A stretch of DNA of 64,000 nucleotides from a virus: positions 70,144 through 134,143 of the IMG/VR virus record IMGVR_UViG_3300008259_000011; one strand, given 5' to 3'. A model generated the notes under the pieces. That model worked only from the letters and a program-made list of their open reading frames with translations, made no database searches and was not told where the DNA came from. Positions 6,514 through 26,969 of the stretch are shown one piece after another (position 1 is the stretch's first letter; every line of letters starts with the position of its first letter). The position numbers and the translations under genes were made by a program.

Positions 6514-7790
6514 AAATTATTTTGCATTTGATGTATAGTTCTATCAAATTCATCCAAAATATACAATTTACAATAATATGACTCTTGCGTTATTACACTA
6601 AAATTAACAGAGACACTTGGAGAAGATGGTTGTTTCAATAACGTCTCAATTAAATTTTTTTCTAAAATTTGAGACACCATTAGTTTATGTTTTGAATTAT
6701 ATATTTCAACTCTCAAAGAGTGTGTATTATCACGATATAATACAGATGTATCAATAACAACGTTCTTGGTTATAGTTTTTAAATCGGAATAACTATTGGT
6801 TTTTCCACACACATAATTTTGATTATATGGTGTTGGTGCATTTTTTCCAGATAATGTATGTACAGAAACAGTCCGATCTAGAAAATTAATACCGGAATAC
6901 CTTTCGTAATCTCTAATCGATCTAACTGATCCCATTTGATATGTCTTAGGAATAGATACATTCACGTCATCTTCCATCTGAAATAACACTCTGTTTCTCT
7001 TATGCGATTGATTGTCACGTTCCCACCAAGATTTTTCTACAACCGAGTGTTTTGTTAAATCGTGATCATCCCAATGTTTTATTCTAGCAGACCGTGTATA
7101 TTCGTGCCACAAAACAACCTTATGTGGATGATACAAATCATAACCATGAGTGAACGCACGAACAGCAATGCTTATTTCTTCGCCATAAAAATAATACTCA
7201 GGATCATGTGGAACTTCATCACAAAAAGATCCATCAGTAAATGCAAAATGAGCAGAATAGAATCTTGCAGGAATAGGCCGAGTTAGTTTATCATGATCTG
7301 TAATCGGATTTGGTACGAATATTACAGTGCCTTCATCTGTAAACGTATGAAAGTCCATTTTCCAAGGAACTTGTTCAAAAGATTCTTTGAGTTCAAATGG
7401 ATCAAATGCAGGCGCATATGTGGTGATAATAGGCTTCTTACTTCCCATATCAACACACTGCGCATACATTTCTTTTAATAAGGTATCCCATCCCTGTACA
7501 AACCTGTGATGAGAGTCTAATTGTAATGTGTATCTTTCTCCGTTATAGTAACGTTGAATCAAATTTCTTGCCCAACATGCCCCTTTACTTTTATAGTAAG
7601 GAACATCGATGATATTGATGTTTGGATAGTTCTGTAAAAAACTTAAATTTTCAACATCATCATGTTGCCAACAAATACAGAGATTTAAATTTTCTGGATT
7701 ATTGGCAGTTTCAAACATATCCACAATGGTTGGTACCAATTCTGGATCTCTATAAGAGGCTATTTGTACAAAAATTGATTCATCGTTCAT
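6510..7790 (-). CDS. GlcNAc-transferase family glycosyltransferase (GT60/Skp1-GlcNAcT-like)
   Basis: IFVQIASYRDPE, GACWAR, LQLDSHHRF..WD, FYGEE, GYDLYHP motifs. Confidence 0.85.
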   Translation of the reverse strand: MNDESIFVQIASYRDPELVPTIVDMFETANNPENLNLCICWQHDDVENLSFLQNYPNINIIDVPYYKSKGACWARNLIQRYYNGERYTLQLDSHHRFVQGWDTLLKEMYAQCVDMGSKKPIITTYAPAFDPFELKESFEQVPWKMDFHTFTDEGTVIFVPNPITDHDKLTRPIPARFYSAHFAFTDGSFCDEVPHDPEYYFYGEEISIAVRAFTHGYDLYHPHKVVLWHEYTRSARIKHWDDHDLTKHSVVEKSWWERDNQSHKRNRVLFQMEDDVNVSIPKTYQMGSVRSIRDYERYSGINFLDRTVSVHTLSGKNAPTPYNQNYVCGKTNSYSDLKTITKNVVIDTSVLYRDNTHSLRVEIYNSKHKLMVSQILEKNLIETLLKQPSSPSVSVNFSVITQESYYCKLYILDEFDRTIHQMQNNL

Positions 7791-12308: not shown

Positions 12309-12708
12309 TGGTGGACGTGGGCGGAGTCGAACCGCCGTCTTCAAAAATCGTTATACATCAGACTACACGCTTAGATACTTTTCGTTACGTCAACACACAT
12401 CTAAAATATCAAACTGTGTATGATCGGTGTTTGGAAAGATTTAAATGACAATCCCAAACGTATTGTCATCGTGCCTGATAGTTTACACTCATCACAATTA
12501 TCAGACATCATTGCAATGAATGTGCAGCAACTTAGGCTGCGAGTGCCAAACCACTCTTCTTAGAGGTCTTCTTAGAAGTGAAGTTGTAGCTGATTACCTT
12601 GCTCTTCTTATTAGCAGTTAATTTTTTGATAGATGATTTAAGAGGCCAACTATCGTCCTCTACGTGCCTAACGTACACTAACTCCTGAATCGAAACCAGT
12701 ACACGCCC
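12309..12708 (-). ncRNA. ssrA: tmRNA; tag ANKKSKVISYNFTSKKTSKKSGLALAA (12615-12532)
   Basis: 5' GGGCGTGTACTGGTTTCGA, 3' T-arm GGTTCGACTCC..CACGTCCACCA with G3:U70, TAACT-GCT resume context, tag ending LALAA-stop. Confidence 0.95.
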
Positions 12709-12731
12709 ATGAAAAAGAACACAAATAAATA

Positions 12732-13361
12732 TCAGATAAATTCTCTCTGATATCCAAATTCATTAAATACATCTTTGTATAGATCCCACACAAAATCAAG
12801 TTCTTTTTGAGTATAATAACTTTTATAATCTGTCATTTGTGAATTCTTCGGATCCCGTCGCAATTCAAACGTTTGAGAATTGCCTTCAAACTGATAATTA
12901 TTAGTAGTCAATCCATTTACCAAAGTGTTTGTGTGCGGATCTGTAAAATCTAAAAATGGCAATTTGTGCAAATCTTCAATCATATGTTCAACACGTATGT
13001 AAAAATCAGGTTTACTACTGTGTCTAATGATAAAATGTTCTTCAGACCTATCGTTACACTCTTCATTAAGATATTCTGAAAATGGTTTTTTTGCAACATA
13101 ATTTCCAGTTTCTGGATCCTCTCCAAAATGACGTAAATGCCATGTTGATACTATTTTTGCATAAGGATTTCTTATATTGCATACTAACGTATAATTATCA
13201 CACCCCGGTGGGATATCTGTTTCGTGTGTATATGACTCAGTAACCGGTATATTTAATCTATAATTATAGAATTTATAGTATGCAAGAATTTCAGATACAG
13301 ATCGACTAGCAGTTCGGGTTGGTAACCACCATACTACTTTTAAGTCGTGATTGACATTCAT
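12732..13361 (-). CDS. sulfotransferase family 2-like protein
   Basis: PTRTASRS PAPS-loop variant, IRNPYAK.VS, Y..DF..FGY C-terminus. Confidence 0.7.
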   Translation of the reverse strand: MNVNHDLKVVWWLPTRTASRSVSEILAYYKFYNYRLNIPVTESYTHETDIPPGCDNYTLVCNIRNPYAKIVSTWHLRHFGEDPETGNYVAKKPFSEYLNEECNDRSEEHFIIRHSSKPDFYIRVEHMIEDLHKLPFLDFTDPHTNTLVNGLTTNNYQFEGNSQTFELRRDPKNSQMTDYKSYYTQKELDFVWDLYKDVFNEFGYQREFI

Positions 13362-13369
13362 TATAATTT

Positions 13370-13443
13370 TGGAGCGGGTAGCCGGAATCGAACCGGCACA
13401 TCGACCTTGGCAAGGTTGCAGGCTACCACTACATCATACCCGC
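13370..13443 (-). tRNA. trnG: tRNA-Gly(GCC)
   Basis: cloverleaf, loop ttGCCaa, encoded CCA. Confidence 0.9.
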
Positions 13444-13455
13444 GCTCTTTAAATT

Positions 13456-13530
13456 TGGTGGACCGTAAGGGAATCGAACCCTTCCCTAAAGCTTGCAAAG
13501 CTCCTGTGCTACCACTATCACTAACAGCCC
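13456..13530 (-). tRNA. trnA: tRNA-Ala(TGC)
   Basis: loop ttTGCaa, G3:U70, CCA. Confidence 0.9.
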
Positions 13531-13579
13531 ATTAATGTCACATAAATAGTATTGATAAGTCTAAACCACAAAATTATAA

Positions 13580-14560
13580 TTAGGATTCTTTCCAACAAAA
13601 TAACAATCCATAATTAGAAAAATTAGTATTACCATCAATTTTAAACCCACATCTATCAATTTTTTTAACCATTTTATCATACATGATTTTATATTCATTA
13701 ATATTCATGAAATGATATTCAATTACCATTCTATCGACATTATATTTTAAATATGACTCTTCAATTCGGTCTATAATAGAATATTCGGATCCTTCACAAT
13801 CTAATTTTAGAAAATCGATTTTAGAAATATTATTGTCGAATATATATTGCATCACATCAATCGTTTGAACACTGGTCAACTCAAATATGTCATTATCTCT
13901 AATATAATTAGAGTCTTGTTTTTTTATAGTATTGTCAAACGTTTCAAGACATGACGATATACCATCCGATCTAATATAAAAGTTTTCAACGTGTGTTTTA
14001 TTACTCAATGCAATCGTATCAACTTTTACGTTTGTGAATTTATGACTGGCAATTGTATTTGATAATTTATAATTCGGTTCTATACTATAAACAAATTTAG
14101 CACCATCATACAAAGATTTATATGTAAAAAATCCAATATTTGATCCAACATCGACCACAACATCATTAGTTTTTACAAAACATTTAGGGTGATTATAAAC
14201 ACGATTACAAAAAATTTCATATAGTGGTATTGCAAGCAAATGAGTCGTCGTACATTTTAATCCAATATCTTTAAAATATCCACGTGAGTCGATGTTACTC
14301 AGATTGATACATCCATCAAAGTTTTCAACTTTAAATAAAAGTTCATTTTCATATTCGTCATACACTTCATATATTTTATGAACGACGTTTTGCGGAGTAC
14401 GAACCCATAACAACTCATTGGGATATACATCAACTAATATATTAAAAAAAATTAACTTGGTATAACCATCCAACACTTTTACTTTAACTTTATTTGGTCT
14501 ACCATCGTAAGTAAAATTTATTTTACAGCCGTTATCAGAAAAACTATGAAATGTAATCAT
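13580..14560 (-). CDS. FkbM family SAM methyltransferase
   Basis: VVDVGSNIGFF, SIEPN, IDFLKLDCEGSE, IEYH. Confidence 0.9.
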   Translation of the reverse strand: MITFHSFSDNGCKINFTYDGRPNKVKVKVLDGYTKLIFFNILVDVYPNELLWVRTPQNVVHKIYEVYDEYENELLFKVENFDGCINLSNIDSRGYFKDIGLKCTTTHLLAIPLYEIFCNRVYNHPKCFVKTNDVVVDVGSNIGFFTYKSLYDGAKFVYSIEPNYKLSNTIASHKFTNVKVDTIALSNKTHVENFYIRSDGISSCLETFDNTIKKQDSNYIRDNDIFELTSVQTIDVMQYIFDNNISKIDFLKLDCEGSEYSIIDRIEESYLKYNVDRMVIEYHFMNINEYKIMYDKMVKKIDRCGFKIDGNTNFSNYGLLFCWKES

Positions 14561-14636
14561 AACAATTTATATATTATGAGTCAAACCCTTATCTTTTATT
14601 ATTATTTATAAATAATTGCGTTATATACGATCAACT

Positions 14637-15371
14637 TTATGTAAATAACATCCATTGATTATCATATACTAAAACATTATCAATCACAATAGATCCAAAT
14701 AACTTATTTTCAATTTTATTACGCATTTTAATATTCAACTCAAACTGTTTTGCTGCCCGAATCACATCATGTCGTACATCGTCCCAATACCAGTCATCGC
14801 CAAACAATACCATATTAGGACGCATCAATTGTTCATAACAATCTATTATTTCATTATAAGTTTCATTCTTATAGTGTGCACTATCCAGAAAAATTATAGA
14901 TGGTAAACTAGATATACGATTATGATAACGCATTCTAGCTAACAATTTTATTCCAGTAAGAGATGTACAATTAATCGGTACAATTTTATTTCGATACTCG
15001 TAAGTATTTGCTAAAAACCGTTTGTAAATCGTAGGAATACCATTTTCAAACTGTAAAAACTTATATCCTTCACTCTTAGATTCCAAATCCCACATATTTG
15101 TGTCACCTGTAAATGGATCTATGCATACCACCGAAGAACTGTGTAATCCACATCTATTCAATGATTCAATAATCCGTATACAACTACCACCTACCATTGA
15201 TCCTATTTCTAGAACTGACTCTGGTAAATATTCAGTAAACAAACTATCTAATAAAGCAGGCGTTACATTCGTGTGTGGGTATGAGTTGTCTATATATTTT
15301 ATCACATCACAGTTTGTATACGGTGTGATATTATTATAAATCGTATGATTTAATTCTTTATATATTGACAT
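14637..15371 (-). CDS. class I SAM methyltransferase (Methyltransf_24-like)
   Basis: VLEIGSMVGGS, CIDPF, IFLDSAH, GDDW. Confidence 0.85.
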   Translation of the reverse strand: MSIYKELNHTIYNNITPYTNCDVIKYIDNSYPHTNVTPALLDSLFTEYLPESVLEIGSMVGGSCIRIIESLNRCGLHSSSVVCIDPFTGDTNMWDLESKSEGYKFLQFENGIPTIYKRFLANTYEYRNKIVPINCTSLTGIKLLARMRYHNRISSLPSIIFLDSAHYKNETYNEIIDCYEQLMRPNMVLFGDDWYWDDVRHDVIRAAKQFELNIKMRNKIENKLFGSIVIDNVLVYDNQWMLFT

Positions 15372-15693
15372 ACATTTTAAATATACTCAAATCAACTTCG
15401 TTAAACTTGATGTTGATTTTGTCACAACCCCAGTTGGTTGTCATGCATCTTTTTTAGCTTGATCAACAATTTTTTGTAATAAAATTGCGTGTTCCGATAA
15501 TAAACCTTTCAGTGTTTATATATAGTGTACGTCAAACTAAAAATTAAATTGGATGACCACGACTTGCGAATATACGAGGATTTCACGAAAACGTTCTTGA
15601 TTATCTGTTAACAGCTACATCAATATCTATCTCGTCAACTTCAGTCTTCTCCACCTCAACTGGTGGTGTTTTATAATTCTATATCACTAATGG

Positions 15694-15903
15694 TCAAATC
15701 TTTTCAACAATAATATTGTCTGTCACCGGTTTGCCAAGACATACTCTTGTGTTACAAACCATACAAATCAAATTATTCGTCATAACAGTTATTAAAGAAC
15801 CCTTGATAATACCAAGTTCCTGCAATCTTTGACTAACAACGTTAACCTCGACTATTCGTCCTTTTTCACCAGCTTTTAATTCGGTTAACTTATATCTCTT
15901 CAT
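15694..15903 (-). CDS. feoA: FeoA domain protein
   Basis: LTELKAGEKGRI, RLQELGI..GS.I SH3-like FeoA signature. Confidence 0.8.
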   Translation of the reverse strand: MKRYKLTELKAGEKGRIVEVNVVSQRLQELGIIKGSLITVMTNNLICMVCNTRVCLGKPVTDNIIVEKI

Positions 15904-15908
15904 TAAAA

Positions 15909-15982
15909 TGGTTGCCCGAACTGGATTTGAACCAATACAAAGAGAGTCAAAGTCTCTTGTGCTACCATTACACTATCGGGCA
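15909..15982 (-). tRNA. trnQ: tRNA-Gln(TTG)
   Basis: loop ctTTGac, U1-A72, CCA. Confidence 0.92.
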
Positions 15983-15994
15983 ATTAAAATCTAC

Positions 15995-16120
15995 TTACTT
16001 CTTACGTCGATGTCCTCTAACAGTACTCGACTTCACTCTAACATAAGATGTTCCACCTTTACGACGAATCTTTCGAACCGTCGATTTTCTATGATGTGTT
16101 CTTCTCCATGTTGTTGCCAT
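15995..16120 (-). CDS. 41 aa highly basic microprotein
   Basis: MATTWRRTHHRKSTVRKIRRKGGTSYVRVKSSTVRGHRRKK with TAAGGA RBS. Confidence 0.7.
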   Translation of the reverse strand: MATTWRRTHHRKSTVRKIRRKGGTSYVRVKSSTVRGHRRKK

Positions 16121-16128
16121 ATATTTCC

Positions 16129-16257
16129 TTACTTAGTACGACGTTTAGCGTGAACCGTCTTCGAATGTTTGACTCGGACTGTCTTAGTTCCAGTCTTCGT
16201 CTTGATCGTCCTATTATGTCCCTTTCGGGAGTGCGCCTTAACTGATTTAGTTCCCAT
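16129..16257 (-). CDS. 42 aa highly basic microprotein
   Basis: MGTKSVKAHSRKGHNRTIKTKTGTKTVRVKHSKTVHAKRRTK with AAAGGA RBS. Confidence 0.7.
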   Translation of the reverse strand: MGTKSVKAHSRKGHNRTIKTKTGTKTVRVKHSKTVHAKRRTK

Positions 16258-16276
16258 ATATTTTCCTTTCTTAAAT

Positions 16277-16350
16277 TGGAGCGGGTAGTGAGAATCGAAC
16301 TCACGCATAGGCTTTGGAAGAGCTTCAGGCTACCATTACATCATACCCGC
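16277..16350 (-). tRNA. trnG: tRNA-Gly(TCC)
   Basis: loop ctTCCaa, U73, CCA. Confidence 0.9.
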
Positions 16351-16355
16351 AAAAT

Positions 16356-16445
16356 TGGCGGTTGGGGAAGGATTTGAACCTTCGGGGGCTTTAAGACCCC
16401 GGAGCTTTAGCAAAGCTCTGCATTAGACCACTCTGCCACCCAACC
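16356..16445 (-). tRNA. trnS: tRNA-Ser(GCT)
   Basis: loop ttGCTaa, long V-arm, G73, CCA. Confidence 0.92.
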
Positions 16446-16450
16446 ATAAA

Positions 16451-16984
16451 TCATGTTTTATTTTGAACATTATATCCATTATGTTCAAGAACATCTTTAC
16501 ACAATTTAATAAAATCGTCAAGCAATAAATCTCCTTTTGCCATATTAGCATCTTTACACGCTAAACCCAAATTGTCAATATCACATCCACCACCTTTAGA
16601 TACTGGTATTATGTGATCACAATTGTAAGTTTTTGGCTCTAAAAGATCTATTTTTCTGCCTGTCAAATAACATACCGGATTGTTTGTTATTTTTGTTTCA
16701 AATTCTTTAATTGAAAAGTCTAAACTTTTTCGTTTTCCTTTTCCTATTCGTCTACCATTTACAAAACTAAAGTTATCTTTTTTCCGTCTCAATATACCTT
16801 TTAAGGTTTTTCTATTTGATTTGTTTCTTGTTTTTGTTTTTTCTTTTTGACCAACACCACAATGGTATGAAATAGTTCCTTTTGAACACTTCAACAACTT
16901 TTGTATCTCTTTGTACGATTTGCCTTGTTTTCTCAATTCTAATATTAATGGTTTCACATTAATATATAGTTTGGGTTCGAACAA
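16451..16984 (-). CDS. HNH endonuclease with N-terminal HTH (homing-endonuclease-like)
   Basis: CYLTG, DHIIPVSKGG..IDNL..AC..AN..K; lies between two tRNA-Ser genes; start uncertain. Confidence 0.85.
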   Translation of the reverse strand: MFEPKLYINVKPLILELRKQGKSYKEIQKLLKCSKGTISYHCGVGQKEKTKTRNKSNRKTLKGILRRKKDNFSFVNGRRIGKGKRKSLDFSIKEFETKITNNPVCYLTGRKIDLLEPKTYNCDHIIPVSKGGGCDIDNLGLACKDANMAKGDLLLDDFIKLCKDVLEHNGYNVQNKT

Positions 16985-17027
16985 AAATTAATAATAATTA
17001 TTCGAACTCGTTTTTATTTTCAAAGAA

Positions 17028-17115
17028 TGGCGGTGAAGGAGGGATTTGAACCCCCGGTGGTTTTACCCACTGCAGTTTTCAAGACTGCTGCAATAAACCG
17101 CTCTGCCACCTCACC
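17028..17115 (-). tRNA. trnS: tRNA-Ser(TGA)
   Basis: loop ctTGAaa, long V-arm, CCA. Confidence 0.93.
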
Positions 17116-17124
17116 GTTTAAAAT

Positions 17125-17216
17125 TGTCTACCGTTCGAAGCCGCCTTCATAGAATTACCTATGAGTCTAAGCGGAGTATATCTCCTCGTCCACCGTGTGG
17201 TTACGTTCAAACTAGC
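17125..17216 (-). ncRNA. unclassified multibranch structured RNA candidate
   Basis: closing stem GTTTGAA/TTCGAAC enclosing three hairpins; sits in a tRNA-sized slot. Confidence 0.35.
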
Positions 17217-17220
17217 AAAT

Positions 17221-17304
17221 TGGTGGGCGTAGTAGGATTTGAACCTACACGGATCGCTCCATGAGTTCCTAAGACTCACGTGTCTTCCATTTCACCATAC
17301 GCCC
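17221..17304 (-). tRNA. trnL: tRNA-Leu(TAG)
   Basis: loop ctTAGga, V-arm, CCA. Confidence 0.92.
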
Positions 17305-17310
17305 GTAAAT

Positions 17311-17387
17311 TGGTCGGAGTGACAGGATTTGAACCTGCAACAACTTGCTCCCAAAGCAAGTGCTCTACCAAGTTGAGCTACACTCCG
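17311..17387 (-). tRNA. trnP: tRNA-Pro(TGG)
   Basis: loop ttTGGga, C1-G72, CCA. Confidence 0.93.
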
Positions 17388-17397
17388 ATAAAAATTT

Positions 17398-17562
17398 TCA
17401 ATGAACACCAAGAAGATCCAAATACTTTGTCTCCGGTTGTGGTAGAATTTCATCTGCCACAGTCATAATTGCCTTATAGTAAGCATATGACGGATACTGT
17501 TCCGTAATCTTCATGTTCTTAAGATACTCGAAAAGAACTTTATTGTCAACATCAATTTCCAT
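17398..17562 (-). CDS. small hypothetical protein (54 aa)
   Basis: MEIDVDNKVLFEYLKN...LLGVH fills gap between tRNAs. Confidence 0.5.
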   Translation of the reverse strand: MEIDVDNKVLFEYLKNMKITEQYPSYAYYKAIMTVADEILPQPETKYLDLLGVH

Positions 17563-17582
17563 ATTTTTCTTTCTTTAAAAAT

Positions 17583-17657
17583 TGGTACACGGTGAGGGAT
17601 TTGAACCCCCGACAGCCACGGTGTAAACGTGGTGCTCTGCCGCTGAGCTAACCGTGC
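17583..17657 (-). tRNA. trnV: tRNA-Val(TAC)
   Basis: loop ttTACac, CCA. Confidence 0.92.
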
Positions 17658-17674
17658 ATCTCAATCGTTCATAC

Positions 17675-17702
17675 ATACTAACACCGAATCTGAAAATGTC
17701 AA
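17675..17702 (-). promoter_or_regulatory. sigma70-type promoter upstream of tRNA array 1
   Basis: TTGACA-16nt-TAGTAT. Confidence 0.65.
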
Positions 17703-17716
17703 TGATCTTTTCAAAC

Positions 17717-17781
17717 AAAAAACCGTTGATCTTTTGGACCAACGGTTTCAAATCTGAGCAATTGTTTTTTAACCGTTAGTC
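17717..17781 (-). terminator. attenuator 1: intrinsic terminator (17717-17748) with competing antiterminator strand (17771-17781)
   Basis: AAACCGTTGGTC-CAAAA-GATCAACGGTTTTTT; upstream GACTAACGGTT can pair with the terminator 5' arm. Confidence 0.8.
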
Positions 17782-17785
17782 TAGT

Positions 17786-17857
17786 TTAGCTTGCGCTAGG
17801 GAGTAGCGATGGACTTGGTTGTCCACTGGCTACACTTGACTGTACGGATAAATTCAT
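17786..17857 (-). CDS. leader peptide 1 MNLSVQSSVASGQPSPSLLPSAS (putative attenuation sensor)
   Basis: 23 codons; from codon 4 only Ser/Val/Gln/Ala/Gly/Pro/Leu(CUN), the amino acids of array 1 tRNAs. Confidence 0.8.
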   Translation of the reverse strand: MNLSVQSSVASGQPSPSLLPSAS

Positions 17858-17881
17858 TATGACAATACATATAGTTAAATT

Positions 17882-18814
17882 TCACAAATGTACATTATTT
17901 TTGAACCAAAAGTAAGTTTTTTCCAAACCGTCCATCAAATTTGTACGAGGTTTCCATCCCATCGATAAGATTTTAGAACTGTCCATGATCTTACGTGGCG
18001 TACCATCAGGTTTGGCAGTATCCCATACAACTTCACCTTCATACCCCACAACTTTACATACAGCTTCAGTTGCCTCTTTAATGGTAATATCAGATCCATA
18101 TCCCACGTTGATATGTTGATCAGCGCTGTAATTTTCCATCAAAAACACACACGCTTCCGCTAAATCATCAACATACAAAAACTCTCTCATAGGAGTTCCA
18201 CTTCCCCAACAAACAACTTGAGAATCATTCTTGATTTTTGCCAAATGGAATTTACGAATCAATGCGGGTAACACATGAGAGTTAATTGGATCGAAGTTGT
18301 CCTTGATACCATACAGATTGCATGGCATAGCACTGATAAAATCACACCCATATTGTTGACGATACGCTTGACATGTACGTATACCGGCAATCTTTGCAAG
18401 AGCATACCACTGATTGGTTGGTTCTAATTCACCGGTTAACAGATACTCTTCCTTAATTGGTTGCTGTGCAAACTTCGGATAAATACAACTGCTACCCAAA
18501 AACAACAATTTGTTTACGTTATATACGTATGACGCATTAATGATGTTATTTTGTATCTGTAAATTATTGTATATAAAATCAGCTGGGTATGTACTGTTGG
18601 CAATAATACCGCCAACTTTTGCTGCTGCCATTATCACATACTCTGGCTTTGTAGTTTCAAAAAATTTATTTACAGATTGTTGATTGGTAAGATCCAATCC
18701 ATTATGACCCACACCTATTAAATTCGTATAACCATTATTCAATAGTGTTCGCCAAATAGCAGATCCAACCATTCCGTTATGTCCGGCTACATAAATCTTC
18801 GAACCTTTATTCAT
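17882..18814 (-). CDS. fcl: GDP-L-fucose synthase
   Basis: AGHNGMVGSA, AAKVGGI, FLGSSCIYP, YALAK, SHVLPALIRK, WGSGTPMREF; likely start MNKGSK. Confidence 0.97.
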   Translation of the reverse strand: MNKGSKIYVAGHNGMVGSAIWRTLLNNGYTNLIGVGHNGLDLTNQQSVNKFFETTKPEYVIMAAAKVGGIIANSTYPADFIYNNLQIQNNIINASYVYNVNKLLFLGSSCIYPKFAQQPIKEEYLLTGELEPTNQWYALAKIAGIRTCQAYRQQYGCDFISAMPCNLYGIKDNFDPINSHVLPALIRKFHLAKIKNDSQVVCWGSGTPMREFLYVDDLAEACVFLMENYSADQHINVGYGSDITIKEATEAVCKVVGYEGEVVWDTAKPDGTPRKIMDSSKILSMGWKPRTNLMDGLEKTYFWFKNNVHL

Positions 18815-18884
18815 AGTCTTAATGGTACATATCAAATAACATATTATTAAAATGAAAAAACCACCCAAAGGTGGTTTTCTTTTT

Positions 18885-22558: not shown

Positions 22559-22632
22559 TGGTAGGCAATCACGGTTCCGCCCCGTGGTCTTTCGATTATC
22601 AGTCGAATGCTCTACTATTGAGCTAAATGCCT
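22559..22632 (-). tRNA. trnI: tRNA-Ile(GAT)
   Basis: loop ctGATaa, atypical T-loop GGCGGAA, CCA. Confidence 0.85.
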
Positions 22633-25278: not shown

Positions 25279-25309
25279 ATATCATATAAATATAACAAAT
25301 CAAAAAAAC

Positions 25310-25418
25310 TAATCTGCATGGTTGGAATTGAACCAACGGCCCGTGCTTATTCACACTTTTACGGTGTCATTTACCATCATAGTGAGCACTGATCTACCTC
25401 TGAACTACACACAGATTA
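25310..25418 (-). ncRNA. tRNA-like RNA with ~37 nt expanded anticodon loop, no CCA
   Basis: acceptor, D and T arms present; GTGCT/AGCAC stem encloses a long insert. Confidence 0.55.
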
Positions 25419-25768: not shown

Positions 25769-25894
25769 TGGCTCCAGAGGAAGGGCTCGAACCTTCAACA
25801 TTTCGGTTAACTTCAGCCTTGTGAGATTTGCACTCTCTATTAAATAGTACTTTATAGCCCACAGCCGAACGCTCTACCATTGAGCTACTCTGGA
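25769..25894 (-). tRNA. trnN: tRNA-Asn(GTT) interrupted by 51-nt insert in the anticodon loop
   Basis: removing 51 nt restores a canonical 75-nt tRNA with loop ctGTTaa. Confidence 0.8.
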
Positions 25895-26146: not shown

Positions 26147-26265
26147 AATACATTACTTACTACTTCATCACCTTTTATTGATCGGATTCGAACCGATACT
26201 TCCACCGTATCGTGGTGTTGTTCTACCATTTAAACTACGTGTGTGTTGCCTTCACCTAATGTATT
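26147..26265 (-). ncRNA. tRNA-core mimic on a long stem
   Basis: D-arm, anticodon-like arm and T-arm GGTTCGAATCC without acceptor/CCA; closed by AATACATTA/TAATGTATT. Confidence 0.5.
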
Positions 26266-26355: not shown

Positions 26356-26434
26356 TGGCAGCCTCACTCGGAGTCAAACCGAGTTCTCCGGATTGAGAAT
26401 CCAGAATCCTATTACATTCGTAGACGATGAGGCC
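26356..26434 (-). tRNA. trnE: tRNA-Glu(CTC)
   Basis: loop ttCTCaa, CCA. Confidence 0.82.
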
Positions 26435-26587: not shown

Positions 26588-26758
26588 ATAAAAAATTTTC
26601 ACTTACTTCCAATGGATTTTTCACCTATCGTTGGTAGCCATACTATTCCCAGTACGACCGGCGTCTCCTATTCCTTGGCCCGCCTCTACGGTGTTTTGAT
26701 AAGTTCAAAACTTCAAAAAACTCAAGGACAACCGTGTGCCGTCCTTCATCATGTAAAC

Positions 26759-26787
26759 ACTCTATCACCGACTTCCCTCGCCGTCAA
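26759..26787 (-). promoter_or_regulatory. sigma70-type promoter upstream of tRNA array 2
   Basis: TTGACG-17nt-TAGAGT. Confidence 0.6.
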
Positions 26788-26788
26788 C

Positions 26789-26873
26789 AAAAAACCGTCA
26801 CTTTTTTAGGGTGACGGTTGATATTGTTCAAGAAAGGTAAAAGATGAGTCAGAGTACACAATATCAGCCGTCA
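26789..26873 (-). terminator. attenuator 2: terminator (26789-26819) with 16-bp antiterminator (26858-26873 pairing 26812-26827)
   Basis: AACCGTCAC-loop-GTGACGGTTTTTT; TGACGGCTGATATTGT pairs ACAATATCAACCGTCA and overlaps the leader stop codon. Confidence 0.85.
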
Positions 26874-26935
26874 ACACATTCACAATCTCTTGTAAATGTA
26901 TTCCAGCGTTTAATATTGGTATACAAATGGTTCAT
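26864..26935 (-). CDS. leader peptide 2 MNHLYTNIKRWNTFTRDCECVDG (putative attenuation sensor)
   Basis: 23 codons; codons 2-20 all match anticodons present in array 2; TATTTATA motif 7 nt upstream. Confidence 0.85.
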   Translation of the reverse strand: MNHLYTNIKRWNTFTRDCECVDG

Positions 26936-26969
26936 TTTCAAGTATAAATATACGTAAATTTCGAAAACA

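Follow-up and report, generated by a model that had tools for sequence, protein, structure and literature searches.

A short open reading frame (ORF) that stands ahead of an array of transfer RNA (tRNA) genes in IMG/VR virus record IMGVR_UViG_3300008259_000011 raises a question: can a phage adjust the output of its tRNA genes by monitoring how rapidly a leader peptide is translated? We addressed this question in a stretch of 64,000 nucleotides (nt) comprising positions 70,144 to 134,143 of the record and hereafter called the window; it is the final 64 kb of one 134,143-bp contig that looks like a phage genome. The ORF, leader 1, has 23 codons on the minus strand. It heads array 1, in which nine tRNA genes (in order, Val-TAC, Pro-TGG, Leu-TAG, Ser-TGA, Ser-GCT, Gly-TCC, Gln-TTG, Ala-TGC and Gly-GCC) are followed by a transfer-messenger RNA (tmRNA) gene. 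To our knowledge, the control of large phage tRNA sets is largely unexplored, and attenuation is a textbook mechanism for amino-acid operons only. An earlier reading of the letters alone (the original prediction) proposed that leader 1 is a leader-peptide attenuator for the array. We find that leader 1 is a real, conserved unit and very probably a translated leader with a terminator/antiterminator switch. To the full reading, in which it is a ribosome-mediated transcription attenuator controlling whether transcription from a phage-specific start box reads through into array 1, we assign a probability of about 65%.

Every item that the original prediction had named, the 23-codon ORF included, was found in the sequence, and the unit is laid out as follows (positions are those of the window):

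17873..17888, minus: AT-rich upstream element TTTGTGAAATTTAACT, overlapping the 3' end of a GDP-fucose-synthase-like gene
17872-17864, minus: phage start box ATATGTATT, six bases ahead of the ATG
17857-17786, minus: leader ORF of 23 codons plus TAA, MNLSVQSSVASGQPSPSLLPSAS
17852-17834, minus: region 1 (codons 2-8), the 5' strand of a long-range helix with region 2 in the minimum-free-energy fold
17803..17833, minus: inner hairpin within the ORF, GUAGC / GUGGAC-AACCAA-GUCCAU / GCUAC, from the fold
17787..17798, minus: small hairpin UAGC-GCAA-GCUA, which includes the first two bases of the stop codon, from the fold
17785-17768, minus: region 2, the antiterminator strand, the whole of which pairs with region 1
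17781-17771, minus: GACTAACGGTT, the part of region 2 that pairs with the 5' arm of the terminator, four bases away from the stop
17749-17719, minus, with a T run to 17717: intrinsic terminator, a 13-pair stem plus T6
17748-17737, minus: terminator region 3, AAACCGTTGGTC, the 5' arm, followed by the loop CAAAA
17731-17721, minus: terminator region 4, GATCAACGGTT, the 3' arm, followed by the T run to 17717
17702-17675, minus: sigma-70-like promoter TTGACA-16-(TGT)TAGTAT, between the terminator and tRNA-Val

The codon content of leader 1 mirrors the array that it precedes. Codons 4-23 encode solely Ser, Val, Gln, Ala, Gly, Pro and CUN-type Leu, which are exactly the seven amino-acid classes of the nine array 1 tRNAs. 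The eight codons that the original prediction had singled out (GTA, TCA, AGC, GGA, CAA, CCA, CTA and GCA) are all present; they are the Watson-Crick cognates for eight of the nine tRNAs, the missing one being GGC, cognate to Gly-GCC. The seven classes account for 37.4% of the phage's own codon usage. Under that usage, the probability that all 20 codons would fall in the set is 2.9e-9, or 1.5e-9 if all seven classes must also be represented. When the 60 bases were shuffled, none of 200,000 mononucleotide shuffles (maximum 18) and none of 50,000 dinucleotide shuffles (maximum 19) reached 20/20, and the remaining two frames place only 12/19 and 6/19 codons in the set. The in-set run of 20 is the longest among the 1354 ATG-started ORFs of 16-41 codons in the genome; the runner-up has 11. 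The match between roster and array is far beyond chance.

Homologues of the unit were sought by three routes: through the homing endonuclease that resides inside the array, and with the terminator pattern in viral contigs and in metagenome contigs. The leader unit was held by 12 of 21 viral-contig matches and 18 of 47 metagenome-contig matches to the pattern; the other 9 and 29, respectively, were unrelated terminators and were dropped. Some loci were an identical contig retrieved twice. With the window included, the collection comes to 17 unique nucleotide versions, 14 ORF variants and 13 peptides, the relatives all being uncultured phage contigs. Left out of these counts were a truncated homologue whose contig includes neither box nor ATG (L088) and a locus cut at tRNA-Val (L002). 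The GDP-fucose-synthase-like gene was a poor anchor: it retrieved 33 loci, just two of which (L028 and L029, contigs already known) belong to this phage group, and the other 31 come from unrelated phages that have no array.

The peptides span 18-25 residues (for example, MNLLSVQSVVASGQPSPSALPSAC, MKNQSVQSSVVAGQSSPALLPSLS, MNIQLSSSSLVSALLSAAPQPSLG, MSSNFQLSSGSPALSAGGQPSLS, MKNSLQSSLLVLAGQPSLT and MRNSLQPSLSVAGQPSLT), and the leader frame is the sole frame open across all 14 ORF variants. Among the inner codons of these variants (codon 6 to the third from last), 219 of 220 encode V, P, L, S, G, Q or A, as judged at the amino-acid level. At the two ends (four codons following Met and the final two), only 56 of 84 are in the set; this lower share fits positions at which a stalled ribosome would still be initiating or would already cover region 2. 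Conserved residues are specified by different synonymous codons in different clades (TCC vs. AGT, CAG vs. CAA, GGA vs. GGT, CCA vs. CCT), which argues for selection on the translated reading of the ORF. An alternative 24-codon ORF, MYCHNEFIRTVKCSQWTTKSIATP, starts at an ATG inside the box in another frame (17796-17868, minus; it reads MYCHNEF...). It occurs only in window-like versions and was rejected as not conserved: L001 lacks an ATG in the box, and other relatives have a different frame or an early stop.

Every unit for which downstream sequence is available heads an array of Val-TAC, Pro-TGG and Leu tRNAs, followed by Ala, Ser, Gly and Gln tRNAs. The original prediction had named a leader that is not conserved, or not matched to the tRNAs, in relatives as grounds for abandoning it; what we found is that the 17 versions keep the ORF, the amino-acid set, the geometry of stop and antiterminator, the terminator, the promoter and the array isotypes. 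The comparison with relatives thus supports the attenuation reading. The tRNAs for Leu allow a finer comparison. All six variants that have Leu-CAA or Leu-TAA in array 1 (L008, L016, L086, L027, L096 and L003) use UUR codons within the leader body. Where those two genes sit in array 2, the leader body is CUN-only in the window, in the L001/L013/L022 group and in the L011/L026 group; that is, UUR codons are lacking beyond codon 4 in three of the four groups that keep Leu-CAA/Leu-TAA in array 2. The tendency of Leu UUR codons to follow the placement of Leu tRNA genes between the arrays, seen in few and phylogenetically non-independent cases, supports a real link between leader and array.

Can the transcript of this unit adopt the alternative structures of an attenuator? 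The fold computed for leader 1 has an energy of -48.8 kcal/mol (z -6.46), and none of 200 shuffles was as good. In the minimum-free-energy fold, the RNA has four parts: the long-range helix between regions 1 and 2, the inner hairpin, the small stop-codon hairpin and the terminator. All 17 versions fold with the 1:2 helix, the inner hairpin and the terminator, and the inner hairpin and region 1 are built from different sequence across clades. The inner hairpin may be a transcription pause hairpin. Immediately upstream of the small stop-codon hairpin lies an invariant CCTAG. A 22-base spacer separates GACTAACGGTT from the terminator, and about 63 nt lie between the stop codon and the U run.

Region 2 is complementary not only to region 1 but also to region 3: in all 17 versions, 10-14 contiguous pairs can form between regions 2 and 3. 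This 2:3 duplex has energies of -15.9 to -22.7 kcal/mol, and in each of eight representatives none of 500 shuffles was as good. The window's own duplex is computed at -17.0 kcal/mol (0/500 shuffles match), and its first paired base is the fifth after the stop, in agreement with the original prediction, which had this strand start 5 nt after the stop and pair with the 5' arm of the terminator. Across the 17 versions, the two competing hairpins are similar in energy (-13.1 to -20.2 kcal/mol for the 2:3 form, -13.3 to -17.6 kcal/mol for the terminator). The first paired base of region 2 falls 1-5 nt after the stop in every version. Given the footprint of a ribosome, one that is terminating at the stop would mask region 2; the stop is thus placed such that the antiterminator strand could be masked in 17 of 17 versions. 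Five positions vary within region 2, and at each of them every variant can still pair, in standard or wobble fashion, with region 3, which does not vary. An invariant strand shared by two varying partners is what an attenuator predicts.

Among the features of ribosome-mediated attenuators, the unit has a terminator between the leader ORF and the tRNA genes, an antiterminator strand whose pairing excludes that terminator, a stop codon placed for masking of that strand, and codons matched to the downstream supply. In a scan of Rfam, no family match overlapped 17717-17875 at E up to 1 (the Thr, His, Leu, Trp and Phe leaders and the T-box included). The only leader match in that scan, to Phe_leader, lies elsewhere (18828-18884, plus) and is sub-threshold (27 bits vs. 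a cut-off of 55; E 0.69).

The combination of box, small ORF and terminator occurs exactly twice in the 134-kb genome, and each copy heads a tRNA array. The second unit comprises:

26935-26864, minus: leader 2 ORF, MNHLYTNIKRWNTFTRDCECVDG, which heads array 2
26786-26951, minus: the whole leader 2 unit, with box ATATTTATA, ORF MNHLYTNIKRWNTFTRDCECVDG, an antiterminator overlapping the stop, a terminator and a TTGACG-17-TAGAGT promoter

The original prediction held that the two leaders share an architecture and are unrelated in sequence, and this statement stands: leader 2 has the same wiring, with its own antiterminator, its own roster and its own conservation. Its codons 2-20 cover all 12 array 2 classes plus Tyr (P 1.7e-7). 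Its fold (-44.0 kcal/mol, z -5.96) and its antiterminator (-21.1 kcal/mol, 0/500 shuffles as good) resemble those of leader 1 in kind; the antiterminator overlaps the stop codon. Many contigs conserve leader 2, with the consensus Y-T-[NH]-I-K-R-W-[ND]-T-F-T, always ahead of Thr/His/Arg/Glu/Trp/Asn/Lys/Asp/Ile/Phe/Cys arrays. In relatives, leader 2 stops at a different position in the frame, and the RNA strand GGCTGATATTGT is retained. No tRNA-Tyr was found in the genome, despite the Tyr codon in leader 2; relatives have Tyr-GTA in array 2.

Transcription of leader 1 would be directed by the start box. This box, ATAT[GAT]TAT[TA] (e.g., ATATTTATA), occurs 3-10 nt ahead of the ATG in many phage genes, with examples in the window at 25293, 22541, 30314 and 5148 (minus), and 27 of 122 crude gene calls have it no more than 25 nt away. 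A Shine-Dalgarno-like word accompanies only 19 of the 122, and a T precedes the ATG in 91; because so few genes have a Shine-Dalgarno motif, its absence at leader 1 means little. Together, the box and the scarcity of Shine-Dalgarno motifs suggest either a phage-specific promoter giving leaderless messenger RNAs (mRNAs) or a host that does not use Shine-Dalgarno pairing. Across the 16 unique units tabulated, the ATG always follows the box by 5-7 nt. L003 has a separate terminator ahead of its box, which means that the unit needs a promoter of its own. The box is thus a candidate phage-specific promoter or start signal that would yield a leaderless or near-leaderless mRNA. The AT-rich upstream element would be part of that promoter; comparable T/A-rich blocks lie 4-5 nt ahead of the box in relatives and ahead of leader 2.

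Metatranscriptome contigs cannot show starts, ends or strand, and we used them as evidence neither way. In three runs, such contigs cover 17340-17622 (tRNA-Pro, a 54-codon ORF and tRNA-Val) contiguously at near-identity, with no cover of the leader there; they are compatible with co-transcription, and DNA carry-over is possible. In a fourth run, one 151-nt contig (depth 2) spans 17673-17824, taking in part of the leader ORF, the terminator and the sequence up to the -10 box.

How might such a unit operate? In the proposed mechanism, a short transcript would begin at or just ahead of the ATG and would be translated immediately. Almost every inner codon would then require a tRNA from one of the seven classes encoded downstream. 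Were decoding slow, the ribosome would lag within the ORF, leaving region 2 free to pair with region 3; the terminator would not form, and RNA polymerase would proceed through the tRNA genes and probably reach the tmRNA gene, because only one weak terminator-like site intervenes. Were decoding fast, the ribosome would arrive at the stop and cover region 2, regions 3 and 4 would form the terminator, and the transcript would end at 17717. If no ribosome were present, region 1 would pair with region 2, and termination would be expected as well. The phage would thus probably make more array 1 tRNAs when ribosomes read their codons slowly. The sigma-70-like promoter would provide a supply that does not depend on the attenuator, presumably early and via host polymerase; on top of this, the attenuator would let through, according to demand, transcription started from the phage's own class of promoter. 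The two promoters would serve different stages of infection.

A number of observations weigh against this reading. In every homologous unit, the terminator is followed by TTGAC and, 16 nt on, TGnTAnnnT, a conserved sigma-70-like promoter that precedes the first tRNA and lies 15-40 nt behind the T run. The original prediction had entered this promoter as a caveat, and the caveat is real. The array consequently does not depend on read-through, which can only add to its transcription; a classical attenuator has no promoter of its own behind the terminator, and leader 1 departs from that form. Host tRNAs decode the same codons, so the sensor cannot distinguish phage tRNAs from those of the host. 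The RNA data also have their weaker points. Because region 3 is invariant, two-sided covariation is lacking for the 2:3 pairing and for most of the 3:4 pairing. Region 3 had been fixed by the first search patterns. Two scans anchored on the ORF therefore sought homologues with a different terminator arm, and they returned only known loci, all with the same arm (4/4 and 7/7). The 1:2 pairing is only modestly better than that of shuffles (fractions 0.016-0.208), and a 1:2 cross-pairing matrix, with a mean of -13.6 kcal/mol for cognate and -11.5 kcal/mol for non-cognate strands, is not decisive. RNAalifold recovers only the terminator, with no two-sided compensation in 10 pairs, from a MAFFT alignment that misplaces the distant clade upstream. 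The peptide, too, has features that the roster does not predict. L011 and L026 have Asn as codon 12. Beyond composition alone, residues are retained at particular positions (S-[VL]-Q...G-Q-P-S, along with the invariant CCTAG); a sequence-specific role for the peptide or the RNA is therefore possible. Two further exceptions, L098 and L104, have TTG in the leader body, and the Leu tRNA gene in question (Leu-CAA in the former, Leu-TAA in the latter) is seen solely in array 2, ahead of the leader; array 1 is visible only for its first four tRNAs in L098 and its first three in L104. Finally, a relaxed search of the retrieved parts of three more distant relatives (L004, L006 and L007) revealed no convincing module.

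Other explanations were weighed. The attenuator might be real but respond to translation capacity in general or to the supply of amino acids (charged tRNA from whatever source, availability of ribosomes, or stress), with the isotype link arising as a by-product of the phage's most-used or limiting codons. In textbook attenuation, a sensor whose every codon is decoded by host tRNAs is indeed blind to tRNA origin, and array 1 does possess its own promoter. The nearest published case, the trn operon of Anabaena, responds to general translational stress according to part of its report (PMC8421152). A stress sensor, however, has no need for two leaders that split the amino acids almost exactly as the two arrays do, nor for Leu UUR codons that mostly follow the Leu tRNA genes between arrays, and we regard this explanation as unlikely, albeit one to be kept in mind. 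We give rather less credence to the notion that leader 1 is an independent small gene, encoding a conserved Ser/Gln/Pro-rich micropeptide or a structured RNA of ~140 nt that acts in trans, with constitutive termination and some other cause for its position before the array. Its box and terminator of its own, its strong fold, the S-[VL]-Q and G-Q-P-S motifs conserved by position and the synonymous changes at conserved residues (TCC/AGT, CAG/CAA, GGA/GGT) are all compatible with such a gene, and excerpts of work on Sinorhizobium trpL report trans functions for attenuator RNAs and leader peptides. What a trans-acting gene leaves unexplained is the post-stop strand complementary to the terminator arm in 17 of 17 versions, the identity of its composition with the isotype set of the array, and the unrelated second peptide that heads the other array with the same wiring; the length (18-25 residues) and sequence of the peptide also vary widely.

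Two further accounts involve no sensing of the tRNA pool. Translation-dependent termination could act as an insulator that keeps late transcripts from occluding the sigma-70-like promoter, with the codons merely tuning ribosome speed. The proximity of that promoter to the T run in every version is in keeping with this idea, but a plain terminator would suffice for insulation and would require no ORF, antiterminator or codon roster, which makes the account very improbable. Alternatively, the terminator might belong to the GDP-fucose-synthase-like gene, whose end lies 24 nt before the ATG, and be followed by the array promoter, the 23-codon ORF having arisen in the spacer by chance. Both the terminator and the promoter do match their consensus well. 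Yet 17 versions conserve the ORF together with its frame, composition and stop position, some of which have different upstream genes, and L003 has its separate upstream terminator; with chance probabilities of about 1e-9, the comparative data already contradict this account, and we consider it hardly tenable.

If leader 1 is an attenuator, as we favor, how does it compare with known ones? Enterobacterial leaders include multivalent examples, namely thr (Thr and Ile codons) and ilvGMEDA (Ile, Leu and Val), as well as trpL, hisL, pheL and leuL. Like them, leader 1 combines a short ORF, in which regulatory codons abound, with an intrinsic terminator and its U run. Its 2:3 and 3:4 pairings, along with a predicted 1:2 pairing, would exclude one another as theirs do, and its stop codon likewise lies where a ribosome terminating there would cover region 2. 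It differs in preceding tRNA genes and tmRNA, whereas theirs precede biosynthetic enzymes, and in sampling seven classes with one or more codons each, whereas theirs contain a run of one to three. Also unlike them, it has no Shine-Dalgarno motif, a start box 6 nt before the ATG and a conserved promoter after the terminator, and it is borne by a phage. T-box riboswitches, which control aminoacyl-tRNA synthetase and amino-acid genes, bind one uncharged tRNA directly via a specifier codon and the T-box sequence, without translation. As is proposed for leader 1, the choice between terminator and antiterminator depends on the tRNA pool; leader 1, in contrast, would be read by a ribosome and would sample many tRNAs, and no T-box match was found at the locus.

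Two further systems merit comparison. According to part of an abstract, leaderless polycysteine short ORFs in mycobacteria are cysteine-responsive attenuators (bioRxiv 10.1101/834739). There, as is proposed for leader 1, expression of downstream genes is coupled to translation of a short ORF with which the transcript probably begins. The mycobacterial system, as that part of the abstract presents it, concerns one amino acid and protein-coding bacterial operons, whereas leader 1 concerns seven classes and tRNA genes, and its start is only putatively leaderless; that same part presents no terminator/antiterminator pair, whereas leader 1 has one by computation. The trn operon of Anabaena sp. PCC 7120 is described, in sections of two reports, as a long tRNA array that is silent until translation is impaired (PMC8421152; PMC10272220). 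It resembles the arrangement proposed here as an accessory tRNA array whose expression is tied to the state of translation, but those sections attribute its control to direct repeats over the -10 box and transcript start and to the repressor TrcR, not to a leader (PMC8421152; PMC10272220). Term searches for "leader peptide" and "attenuat" gave 0 occurrences in PMC8421152 and PMC10272220. Judged by titles and the openings of abstracts, the literature yielded no account of leader-peptide control of tRNA genes.

The pair of leaders invites a broader, more tentative model, to which we accord somewhat less than even odds. The twenty amino acids would be split over two tRNA arrays, each gated by a leaderless "roster" ORF that samples every isotype, in a two-channel homeostat. 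Depletion of any single tRNA (e.g., by host anticodon nucleases or host shut-off) would elicit read-through within seconds and replace the whole set; array 1 would also raise the level of tmRNA, which rescues stalled ribosomes. Were this model true, leader 1 would be the first attenuator known for tRNA genes; it would also be the first sensor to respond to the tRNA pool itself instead of to a single amino acid. Should the attenuation reading of leader 1 hold, ribosome-mediated attenuation would be extended to tRNA genes by way of a leader that lists the isotypes it controls, and the sorting of phage tRNA genes into arrays would have a directly testable model. Such a leader would be a natural sensor of decoding speed at many codons at once and could report tRNA depletion, e.g., by anticodon-nuclease defences. 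It would also supply a rule by which to search metagenomic phages, namely for small ORFs that equal the downstream isotype set in composition and have an antiterminator strand directly after the stop.

The surroundings of leader 1 are as follows:

18892-17882, minus: GDP-fucose-synthase-like gene upstream of the leader unit, with its stop codon at 17884-17882, ending 24 nt before the leader ATG
17657-17583, minus: tRNA-Val-TAC, the first gene of array 1
12309..17657, minus: downstream unit of nine array 1 tRNAs, interspersed protein genes and the terminal tmRNA

The genes upstream of the leader differ among some versions. On the minus strand between 17719 and 12309, a terminator scan found a single terminator-like site, a weak one at 13116, and the downstream unit would be a single transcription unit. 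The tmRNA gene (12309-12708, minus; tag ending ...GLALAA) is the last gene of array 1; because no strong terminator precedes it, it may be co-transcribed with the array 1 tRNAs. It likewise follows the counterpart of array 1 in the relatives L002, L003 and L019. A 177-residue HNH homing endonuclease with an N-terminal helix-turn-helix is encoded between tRNA-Ser-TGA and tRNA-Ser-GCT (16451-16984, minus); its distribution among relatives is patchy, consistent with a mobile gene.

The contig as a whole carries 26 tRNA genes and the tmRNA gene, together with glycan genes, a helicase-like gene and the HNH homing endonuclease. Lake and freshwater metagenome runs contain similar DNA. DNA and protein searches of a phage collection identified no cultured relative, as the matches were only at the level of tRNAs or of the fucose synthase. 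Rfam adds five tRNA-like genes, all in array 2, that ARAGORN missed at default settings (25772-25894, 25313-25414, 22562-22632, 26359-26434 and 26180-26238, minus). Two of the five, Asn-GTT-like and Phe-GAA-like, are long, owing to ~30-50 nt inserted within the anticodon arm or close to it; the other three are Ile-GAT, Glu-CTC and one truncated copy.

After leader 2 in the window, a non-coding stretch of ~150-170 nt separates the sigma-70-like promoter from the first tRNA (26588-26758, minus). A similar stretch is absent after leader 1 in the window and is present after leader 1 in L003 (8245-8399) and L016 (about 7570-7715), whose copies are alike (GGTTGGGGTTGAAACTCT...). Another relative, L113, has a different small ORF, MMTTKHNFNNRKDCQGGNG, with a terminator of the leader 2 type (1420-1540). 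This ORF follows Glu and Met tRNAs, precedes tRNA-Gln-TTG and may represent a third kind of leader.

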